Shown here: positions 39,456-41,260 of the stretch, one piece after another
Position numbering within the stretch: position 1 is the stretch's first letter
Layout of the letters: each line of letters opens with the position of its first letter
DNA from: Sphyrna mokarran
Lineage: Eukaryota
Direction: 5' to 3'
NCBI GenBank assembly: GCA_024679065.1
Contig: JAGIQG010000028.1
Span: 16,306,001-16,370,000, forward strand
Length of the DNA: 64,000 nt
Translations under genes and position numbers: made by a program
The notes under the pieces: model-generated
Told to the model about the DNA's origin: nothing
The model's database searches: none
The model's input: the letters and a program-made list of their open reading frames with translations, nothing else

Positions 39456-40467
39456 ATAGGGACCTGAAACAGAAACAATGGCCGATTTTGCAGCTATAGG
39501 TCAGGGGCTAGGAGGCCAATTATATCATTTCAACTGACATTACAGCTGACATCAGCTAGCTCAGCACAGACCAGGAATTAGACTTGGGACCTCGCGCTCT
39601 AATGGCTCAGTTACATGCTGGTTTTACCACCTGAGCCATCCAGGGAATTTTGATGCAGTAATTTAATCTCATAGTTCAGGTTACTATTATAAACAATTAC
39701 TGAATCTCTCCATTAAATTACCGCCTTGTAACTCACTTCCAGTTATTGATTATCTTGTGTAGTGTATTTCCTGGCAAACTGTTTTTTCAAAAAAAAAATC
39801 TTGCATTACTCCACAATAAAGAAGCTGAACGTCTGAGGTACCACATGATAAATGTGTACCCTTTCATCTAAATTACTACACCTTTACTATGCTCAGCATT
39901 TCCACCATTCCATGGTTAAAAAGGAAAAAACCTTTAAGCAGACTATATATTATGAAGAACAACAAGTAGCTGTCAGCAAGTTTAAAGCTTTTGTGATTTG
40001 AGACATCATCAGAAGTCAAGGTTAATGATCTATCACTCTATTCCTCATCTAAATATTTCAATGGTTTTGAATCATTCAAGTCTTAGCTATTCAAGACATT
40101 ACAACCCTTTAAAGTTTAAAAGTGATAAGATTTTGTACAGTCCTTCGCTACTGTCAACAAGCAATTTTCTTAGAACAAAGTGCTAAAGTAAGTCTCTTAA
40201 AATGTTCTTGGTAACAATAGCATGAGCTCCCATATAGATTTATTTAATTCAACAGCATAAATTTTGACCAGTATTTTGGTGATGACTTTGGGAATATTTT
40301 CCATTTCAGCACCCAGTATTAGCATCAAGCACTTCTAGTAAAGGACACTATATGTTAGTTGCAGAGTAAAAGTTCCAATATATTGTGCTATGAAGCATTC
40401 CCAAAGCAAGTACATAAAGTTTCCTTTACTCCATACCTTGATCACAATGTTATTTCCACATATATAA

Positions 40468-41260
40468 TCCATAGAACTATAAAAAGGTTATGGCACAGAA
40501 AGAGGCTATTCAACCCACTTGCAATGGCTAAAAGGAAAAAAAACTAGATTTTTAAAAAATTTATTTATCCAATTCAATCAAATCAAGTCCAATTCAGAAT
40601 CTCAACAAGGGAGACATTCCTGATCTAAGCTGACAAGACAGGGCTTTCACCTCCTGTCTTGGTCTTGATCTACATGATCCAGGCTGACTGGAGCAGGCAT
40701 TGCACCTCCTTCAAGGCTTGATCTCATTTGCATCTTAGCCAAAAGGCTGAAATGCTGCTTTTAAAAATTGCTTCAAATGAAGCTAAAGAAAAACTAGATG
40801 CCCATTCTAATTTCACCTTCTAGTACCTGGTTTGTAGCATTGCAGATCACAGCATTTTATTTAAGATTTAGGTACCTTTTAAATGAGATTAGGATTTCAC
40901 CAGCTGGCGAATTCAGACATCTACCATTTTCTGGGTAAATATTTTTTTCCTGACGTCCTCTTTAATCCTCTGACTAATCACCTTAAATCTGTGCCCCCTG
41001 ATAATTGACCTTTCCAGTGTGCAAAAACAAGTCTTTCCTGTCTATTCTATCTAAGCTTCTCACAATCTTATACCCCTTAATTAAATCAGTTCTTACCCCT
41101 CTGTCTTTGTTGGATAATACAGTCCAGAACTGGCAGAGACTTGTCCATATCCATCAGCAACCACTTTATAACTGTTCAAATTCATTTTACATTGCACCCT
41201 TGCATCCAATAGACCAGGAAGACTTCCATCCCATCTGTATGAGCTCGATTTAAGGAGAAA
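40468..41260 (-). mobile_element. Old CR1 3' fragment hosting a short insertion
   Basis: Reversed CR1 tail catagaac...ggcacagaaagaggctattcaaccc and ORF2 end (caccttaaatctgtgcccc, as in the CR1 at 36505). Confidence 0.65.
40549..40781 (-). mobile_element. Short TSD-flanked retroposed element with U2 snRNA 5' motif
   Basis: Flanked by gctaaaaggaaaaaaactagat (40527-40548) and gctaaagaaaaactagat (40782-40799). Minus strand has GCCTTTTGGCTAAGAT (40732-40747, U2 nt 12-27) and an A-rich 3' end. Confidence 0.65.

Follow-up and report, generated by a model that had tools for sequence, protein, structure and literature searches.

A U2-headed, SINEU-like SINE family in Sphyrna mokarran and its association with a Keno-like Tx1 LINE

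SINEU elements are short, non-coding SINEs with a head derived from U1 or U2 and a poly(A)-type tail, of which Kojima 2015 found none beyond crocodilians (PMC4494074). Their partners are Tx1 (Tx1-Mar) families, which carry U1/U2 heads themselves and have no tail in common with the SINE. For SINEU-3, tandem copies sandwiching a target-site duplication (TSD) have been reported (PMC4494074). The transcription of SINEU was left open by Kojima, because the promoters of snRNA genes lie outside the RNA (PMC4494074). In PMC8010984, avian, crocodilian and mammalian genomes are given for SINEU and SINE28 jointly, with Kojima 2015 cited for SINEU, and the accessible parts of PMC5381603, PMC5753468 and PMC5786205 name no further SINEU host. 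The primary data on SINEU in the literature searched come from crocodilians only, and no SINEU from a cartilaginous fish is reported among the literature matches listed, a scope outside which lie Repbase, Dfam and subscription journals.

Another kind of element associated with U2 is Keno, a U2-specific member of the Tx1 clade with an AP endonuclease (PMC4494074), whose 3' flank starts at U2 nt 39 (PMC6136364; PMC4640811). The same insertion site is used by Utopia, which has a restriction-like endonuclease and TSDs of ~20 bp in its reptile families (PMC4640811). In R2-type co-transcription, a promoter-less element is carried within the transcript of its target gene (PMC4494074).

The locus described here lies in a window of 64,000 nt from Sphyrna mokarran (the whole stretch of DNA analysed; contig JAGIQG010000028.1, positions 16,306,001 to 16,370,000). 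It holds a truncated copy of a SINE family which, as far as sequence comparison can tell, is on balance probably a SINEU-type element, mobilised by the genome's own Keno-like LINE and transcribed from U2 genes. The comparison is made at the level of class features (a U1/U2 head, short length, absence of coding sequence, a poly(A)-type tail and amplification as a unit). Like SINEU-1, especially -1J, -1E and -1F, the elements are non-coding and shorter than 500 bp, with a U2-derived 5' head, partly duplicated U2 pieces, a poly(A)-type tail and subfamilies with renewed heads, and their tandem copies sandwich a TSD as in SINEU-3 (PMC4494074). Their probable partner is likewise a Tx1 family with U1/U2 heads and no common tail. 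Crocodilian SINEU favour Mariner-N4 as a target (PMC4494074). The copies here appear dispersed, with a few at the Keno site of U2 and a single one preceded by promoter-like DNA. They also have two hairpin units and a predicted fold-back arm, neither of which the accessible text on SINEU mentions (PMC4494074).

The partner LINE has the domain order of Keno and occurs at the same site, with the same 3' flank from U2 nt 39. Unlike Keno, the SINE is non-coding and without a tail in common with the LINE, and the LINE of this genome is mostly dispersed. Utopia shares the insertion site and its ~20-bp TSDs (PMC4640811) are comparable to the overlap of U2 nt 39-58 seen for the LINE here, whereas the LINE beside the SINE has an AP endonuclease. 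The proposed model resembles R2-type co-transcription, with U2 as the target and a non-autonomous element as the passenger. The family would extend SINEU beyond crocodilians, and would point to repeated origins of snRNA-headed SINEs in genomes that have U2-targeting Tx1 elements.

The truncated copy and its family

In a preliminary description, made from the sequence of the window, the insert was placed at 40549-40781 between imperfect direct repeats, within a CR1 tail. The repeats are indeed there, at 40527-40549 (23 nt, the TSD on the element's 3' side) and 40782-40799 (18 nt, the TSD on its 5' side), and differ only in homopolymer lengths, the former being longer through homopolymer expansion; the limits of the insert had to be corrected to 40550-40781. 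The outermost 6 nt at the element's 5' end (40782-40787) fit the family consensus too, a microhomology common to TSD and element, so that the homology of the window copy spans 40560-40787, with 94.3% identity to the 30-copy consensus. The copy (40550-40787, minus strand) belongs to subfamily Y. As it covers only positions 77-305 of a consensus of ~300 nt, it is 5'-truncated by ~76 nt and lacks both the head of U2 nt 1-40 and the fold-back arm. Reverse transcription would have stopped at position 77, and the end would have been joined via the 6 nt of microhomology. At its 3' end, the family-specific tail and the A-rich end described earlier were found at 40550-40598 (minus strand).

Translation of the flank supports the interruption of a host element, since the decayed end of a LINE reverse-transcriptase ORF (ORF2) is present at 40800-41100 on the minus strand, and its 3' UTR continues at ~40460-40526. 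We presume this host LINE to be a CR1. The window copy itself is a dead, truncated, ordinary insertion without sign of function.

The element is not confined to the window. It forms a dispersed family, and 22 nt of its tail have 451 exact matches in the genome (control 0). Searching the same genome yielded 2542 candidates at first look, a figure that is not a copy number; 40 of these were scored, with 43 matches. From 30 aligned copies, a consensus of ~300 nt was derived, and the copies examined are short (<500 bp), non-coding and A-rich at the tail. When the first 30 tail matches on contig C1 were taken in order of position, 23 began within the first 31 nt of the element, and three of the remaining 7 had the rest of it nearby as a separate match. 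Complete copies begin at U2 nt 1-7, most of them within a few bases of nt 1, and their flanks are unrelated. A TSD was detectable in 11 of these 30, compared with 5 of 870 pairs of mismatched flanks, so relatives bounded by TSDs do exist. Thus, the earlier view of a non-autonomous, U2-related SINE is supported, as the element is multicopy with TSD-bounded copies and its consensus keeps and extends the U2 match.

Near-full copies numbered 90 before and 87 after the removal of duplicates. These 87 fall into Yg (41), Ya (29), O (16) and one mixed copy, with 89-91% identity to their own consensus, and at least three subfamilies are recognised. The junction of head and body in subfamily Y recurs in 552 exact matches in the genome (control 0). 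Because one junction recurs to this extent, and because there are subfamilies, the element is amplified as a unit from source copies and is not the sum of independent chimeras. Contigs of four sequencing runs, from four studies of four other organisms (4 of the 22 runs listed), cover the body as well, with 60-244 contigs per run; they carry no information on expression. No common target motif was evident on reading the flanks of 60 copies; most copies appear to sit at dispersed AT-rich sites and few at U2.

SINE-SINE tandems with one duplicated target in common were seen in L016, L020/L113 and L092, and in the mixed pairs Y lies upstream of O in four of four (L016, L020, L188 and L203). Junctions within trains repeat the TSD in L016, L020/L113, L092, L176, L188 and L224, and do so in neither L123 nor L127. 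Recutting of a single site, pairing with the older head and template jumps are candidate origins of the trains. Two rearranged loci were also observed: L024:1402-2018 has a SINE copy between two inverted pieces of a second copy, and L132:617-2358 (oriented) has U2 nt 14-39 followed by an internally deleted Tx1 piece and a SINE from position 31.

U2 pieces, folding and the fold-back arm

The U2 motif by which the element was first recognised is real: over 40750-40732, 18 of 19 positions agree with host U2 nt 9-27, and nt 12-27 are matched exactly (40732-40747). It had been placed ~30 nt from the 5' end of the insert. It is not the head of the element, however, and belongs to a second, internal U2-derived piece (U2 nt 4-27; 40730-40756, minus strand), which is predicted to form an extended stem-loop I. 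The real head was missed, being situated upstream of the truncation point. In complete copies it consists of U2 nt 1-40 (subfamily Y) or 1-37 (subfamily O), and positions 1-40 of the 30-copy consensus match host U2 nt 1-40 at 38 of 40. The consensus runs from the U2 head through an arm (45-72), a small hairpin, the second U2 piece (nt 4-27) and two hairpin units to another small hairpin, the tail and the A-rich end. An Rfam scan detected U2 in all four family loci scanned, and no family other than U2 matched the body. On the window region alone, the scan left U2 undetected and gave chance snoRNA and miRNA matches only; U1 homology was sought in the SINE body and none was found.

An internal promoter of the snRNA type was considered for the body. 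It has an exact octamer motif at consensus 131-138 (window 40726-40733), which is retained in 62 of 87 copies, an unremarkable figure (rank 27 of 245). Among the host U1 genes, 9 of 14 loci carry the octamer, at -205 to -208; none occurs in exact form in the 1500 nt upstream of the main host U2 gene, and the upstream elements of host U1 and U2 are too dissimilar for a PSE to be defined. On these grounds, an internal promoter is not supported. A classical Pol III SINE with a tRNA, 7SL or 5S head was also discarded, as the head is U2 with a T4 run and 5S lies upstream of one copy only.

The two tandem units are as first described. Unit 1 (40676-40723, minus strand), the start of which resembles U2 nt 25-31, has an outer stem, an internal loop and an inner stem. 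Unit 2 (40622-40670, minus strand) repeats the outer arms and internal loop of unit 1 around a different, complementary inner stem. As consensus units, they fold with z -3.5 and z -3.0, respectively, each with 1 of 200 shuffles as good. The motif shared by the units gives 5 matches at one mismatch or fewer against 0.72 expected, a number reached by 0 of 100 shuffles; among the 5, only the two exact ones are the units. Small predicted hairpins lie at 40769-40784 (consensus 80-95) and, degraded in this copy, before the tail at 40599-40616, both on the minus strand. The whole consensus folds with z -5.3 (0 of 200 shuffles). Single copies fold more poorly, with z -2.19 for L016 and z -1.83 for the window copy (9 of 200 shuffles, i.e., weakly better than shuffles), and for consensus positions 107-272 the reverse strand folds as well as the sense strand.

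The arm at 45-72 is G·U-rich and is predicted to fold back over the U2 head. Of its 28 positions, 24 are able to pair with U2 nt 11-38 (0 of 2000 shuffles), while its identity to antisense U2, 15 of 28, is not significant alone (371 of 2000 shuffles). Nine of the 13 changes in the arm are A-to-G or C-to-T and preserve G·U pairs on the U2 strand; the other four make up two small internal loops. RNA editing or CpG decay could contribute to this bias. Subfamily consensuses differ from one another at 10 of 166 paired positions and at 19 of 128 unpaired ones (Fisher p 0.017). Six of the 10 changes in stems disrupt the drawn pair, mostly at the edges of loops. This loop bias gives modest support, because the structure was derived from the same consensus.

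If the arm paired with U2 nt 11-38 in this manner, it would mask the bases that we assume, by the U2 numbering adopted here, to pair with the branch point. Such masking of the head is a prediction only, from the modelled fold. The arm suggests selection on the parasite's RNA for concealing a splicing signal.

The Keno-like LINE and its U2 landing sites

The genome has a full-length, frameshifted Tx1-type LINE (L143) with a ZCCHC3-type ORF1 domain, an AP endonuclease, a reverse transcriptase (RT) and U2 nt 7-58 at its head. A zf-RVT domain was found in L144. Pfam matches were obtained for 5 of the 7 frameshifted pieces of L143 and L144, and over the two loci the AP endonuclease, RT and zf-RVT stand in Tx1 order. 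Same-strand U2 pieces occur at the junction in 19 of 25 LINE 5'-end loci, a proportion obtained with a query that contained U2 nt 7-58 and may favour U2-headed loci. In L149-L173, at ~1400-1560, the U2 heads of the Tx1 5' ends reach nt 33-35, 51-53 or 57-58. In L170, a U1 piece, below the cut-off of Rfam, is joined to U2 nt 29-52 at the Tx1 5' end.

The LINE tail is followed by U2 from nt 39 onward in L105 and L106 (2 matches, control 0) and in L052. None of the 24 other (non-query) top 3' ends has U2 beside it; the LINE is therefore mostly dispersed, a Keno-like family of relaxed specificity. Close to the U2 site, a second Tx1 family was observed at G000:C949 ~17393438-17393607, where U2 nt 46-191 comes after a 3' end of Tx1 type that differs in its 3' UTR and has an ORF2 end 76% identical to that of L105.

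The SINE shares these sites. In L103 and L104, its tail and A-run pass into U2 from nt 39 onward (2 matches, control 0); in L051 and at C949:17.390 Mb, U2 resumes after the SINE at nt 42 and nt 40, respectively. All four of these U2-flanked copies have one head, not two. They may have inserted into U2 genes or pseudogenes without ever serving as sources, and since the U2 part of L103 is only 76% identical to main U2, it may represent a different U2 type. U2 targeting is rare, because U2 was the 3' flank of 0 of 60 other SINE copies and of 0 of the 24 non-query LINE 3' ends. In L029, U2 nt 18-56 precedes the SINE head.

SINE and LINE are also neighbours. The SINE follows directly after the LINE's A-tail in 4 of 25 LINE 3'-end loci, and a pattern of LINE tail plus U2 head has 11 matches (control 0), all 11 of which run on into the SINE body; one of them is already among the 4 of 25. 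LINE-SINE trains comprise up to four elements. One such train, at L143:3983-9529 (G000:C760 ~34.171-34.176 Mb), consists of a Tx1 3' fragment, the U2-headed full-length Tx1 LINE of ~5.3 kb and a SINE. The link to Tx1/Keno raised in the preliminary description is thus supported by common insertion sites and by adjacency.

The host U2 genes form an array of four tandem genes with ~8-kb spacing and 99.5-100% identity (G000:C949 17326629-17351148). The copy at C949:17.390 Mb lies near this array and has a single head, promoter-homologous DNA upstream and U2 flank downstream. It is the only match in the genome to a promoter-head-body pattern, and it is decayed: its identity to the O consensus, 89%, is towards the low end of the 86-94% spanned by subfamily O. 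None of the other 39 scored relatives extends upstream into a U2 promoter, and an intact, near-consensus source gene with promoter was not found in the genome. A second SINE copy, 13 kb before the array, has ~40 nt of U2-upstream-like sequence, which 0 of 1000 shuffles equal against two of the U2 upstream sequences and 16 and 40 of 1000 against two others.

Mobilisation, transcription and the alternatives

The U2 heads, the common landing sites and the copies within U2 together indicate that the SINE likely borrows the LINE's enzymes and the U2 promoter. Mobilisation by the Keno-like Tx1 LINE is very probable on this sequence evidence; the case for a Tx1-clade LINE, made from the shared U2 site and adjacency, is circumstantial, as it is for SINEU (PMC4494074). 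Given mobilisation by that LINE, it is likely that source copies would be transcribed by the U2 promoter. A structured body would have occupied the Keno site within a U2 gene, and the external U2 promoter would then have made an RNA consisting of U2 nt 1-37/40, the body and an A-tract. The ORF2 protein of the LINE would have reverse-transcribed this RNA from the A-rich end, without a tail in common. With relaxed specificity, most landings would be at dispersed AT-rich sites, a few at U2 and many directly upstream of an older U2-headed element. The family makes the transcription of SINEU testable, as it offers copies within U2 at the Keno site, one of them with promoter-homologous DNA, and a U2-headed partner LINE.

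A wider reading is tentative, and we would not count on it. It would see here a vertebrate SINE lineage parasitic on U2 genes, with sources at the Keno site, the U2 promoter, a branch-point-hiding arm under selection and an origin independent of crocodilian SINEU, and would answer how snRNA-headed SINEs are transcribed. If it is true, the hidden branch-point bases would keep the chimeric RNA from acting as a faulty U2.

An account with another origin of the head, unlikely but by no means negligible, accepts a Keno/Tx1-mobilised SINE and holds that template switching onto U2 snRNA both supplied and renewed the U2 head, that transcription read through from flanking promoters or upstream LINEs, and that the U2-hosted copies are dead ends. 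Template switching with flanking transcription is what Kojima proposes for SINEU (PMC4494074). The varied U2 positions at which the LINE heads end, the one U1-plus-U2 chimera and the different junctions of O and Y (U2 nt 37 against nt 40) agree with it, as do the 5S rRNA copy directly 5' of the L103 SINE and the frequent position of SINEs just downstream of LINE copies. However, the single fixed junction with its 552 exact matches ends at the Keno site, most copies begin within a few bases of U2 nt 1 in unrelated flanks, and the C949 copy has its single head directly behind promoter-homologous DNA, all of which speaks against this account.

It is improbable that another LINE, carrying the SINE's 3' tail, was the main mobiliser and that Tx1 came to lie beside the SINE by homing to U2-like heads and not through partnership. 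The Tx1 family and the SINE indeed have no common tail, and Tx1 lies upstream of the SINE in most adjacent pairs; in some pairs, the duplicated target of Tx1 includes the first bases of the SINE head, so that Tx1 came second there. Yet in L103 and L104 the end of the SINE coincides with the Keno cut site, in L156 the SINE immediately precedes a Tx1 head, elsewhere it stands upstream of older SINEs that share its duplicated target, and 0 of 30 loci selected by the tail extend into a LINE in place of the body.

More improbable still is a functional host gene for a variant snRNA or other non-coding RNA as the source, with the dispersed copies as its processed pseudogenes. Strong modular folding with loop-biased subfamily change, the body in contigs of four other organisms and one copy behind U2 promoter-like DNA would suit such a gene; the A-rich tail, the three or more subfamilies and the tandem trains with the LINE would not, no near-consensus copy with a promoter was found in the genome, and the Rfam scan linked the body to no family except U2.

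That the element is what remains of the 3' UTR of a Keno-type LINE, an option raised at first which its A-rich end and its occurrence at the Keno site would suit, is hardly credible: complete copies begin at U2 nt 1-7 in unrelated flanks, no LINE sequence lies upstream in longer copies as part of the element, and alignment of the body to the LINE 3' UTR of L143 gave no significant match (85 of 300 shuffles as good) and nhmmer of SINE against LINE no match, so that SINE and LINE have no common 3' tail and the proposal is contradicted for the Tx1 family found here.

As to the other end of the LINE, a weak gapped alignment of the SINE body to its 5' region (1 of 300 shuffles, in one of four tests) was not confirmed by nhmmer and was set aside. 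The first predicted hairpin of the Tx1 5' UTR (L149-L173) has outer arms that by eye resemble the window units at 40622-40723; a tight pattern for this resemblance matched only 3 of 25 LINE 5' ends and did not recover the two units in the window, so that the resemblance is no more than a lead.

Some further U2-related arrangements were observed. At L103:1884-2078 (minus strand), the U2 head of the SINE has a 5S rRNA copy (65.5 bits) immediately on its 5' side, and a divergent U2 3' part comes after the SINE. L052 and L111 (G000:C1548 ~101.854 Mb) hold a divergent, fragmented U2 type, 81% identical to the main gene, with nt 38-186 and then nt 1-45 interleaved with Tx1 3' UTR fragments. U2 copies starting at ~nt 26-41 were seen in L046, L057, L058 and L060; those in L046 and L060 pass into DNA resembling the U2 3' flank, and are possibly retroposed read-through from the Keno site.
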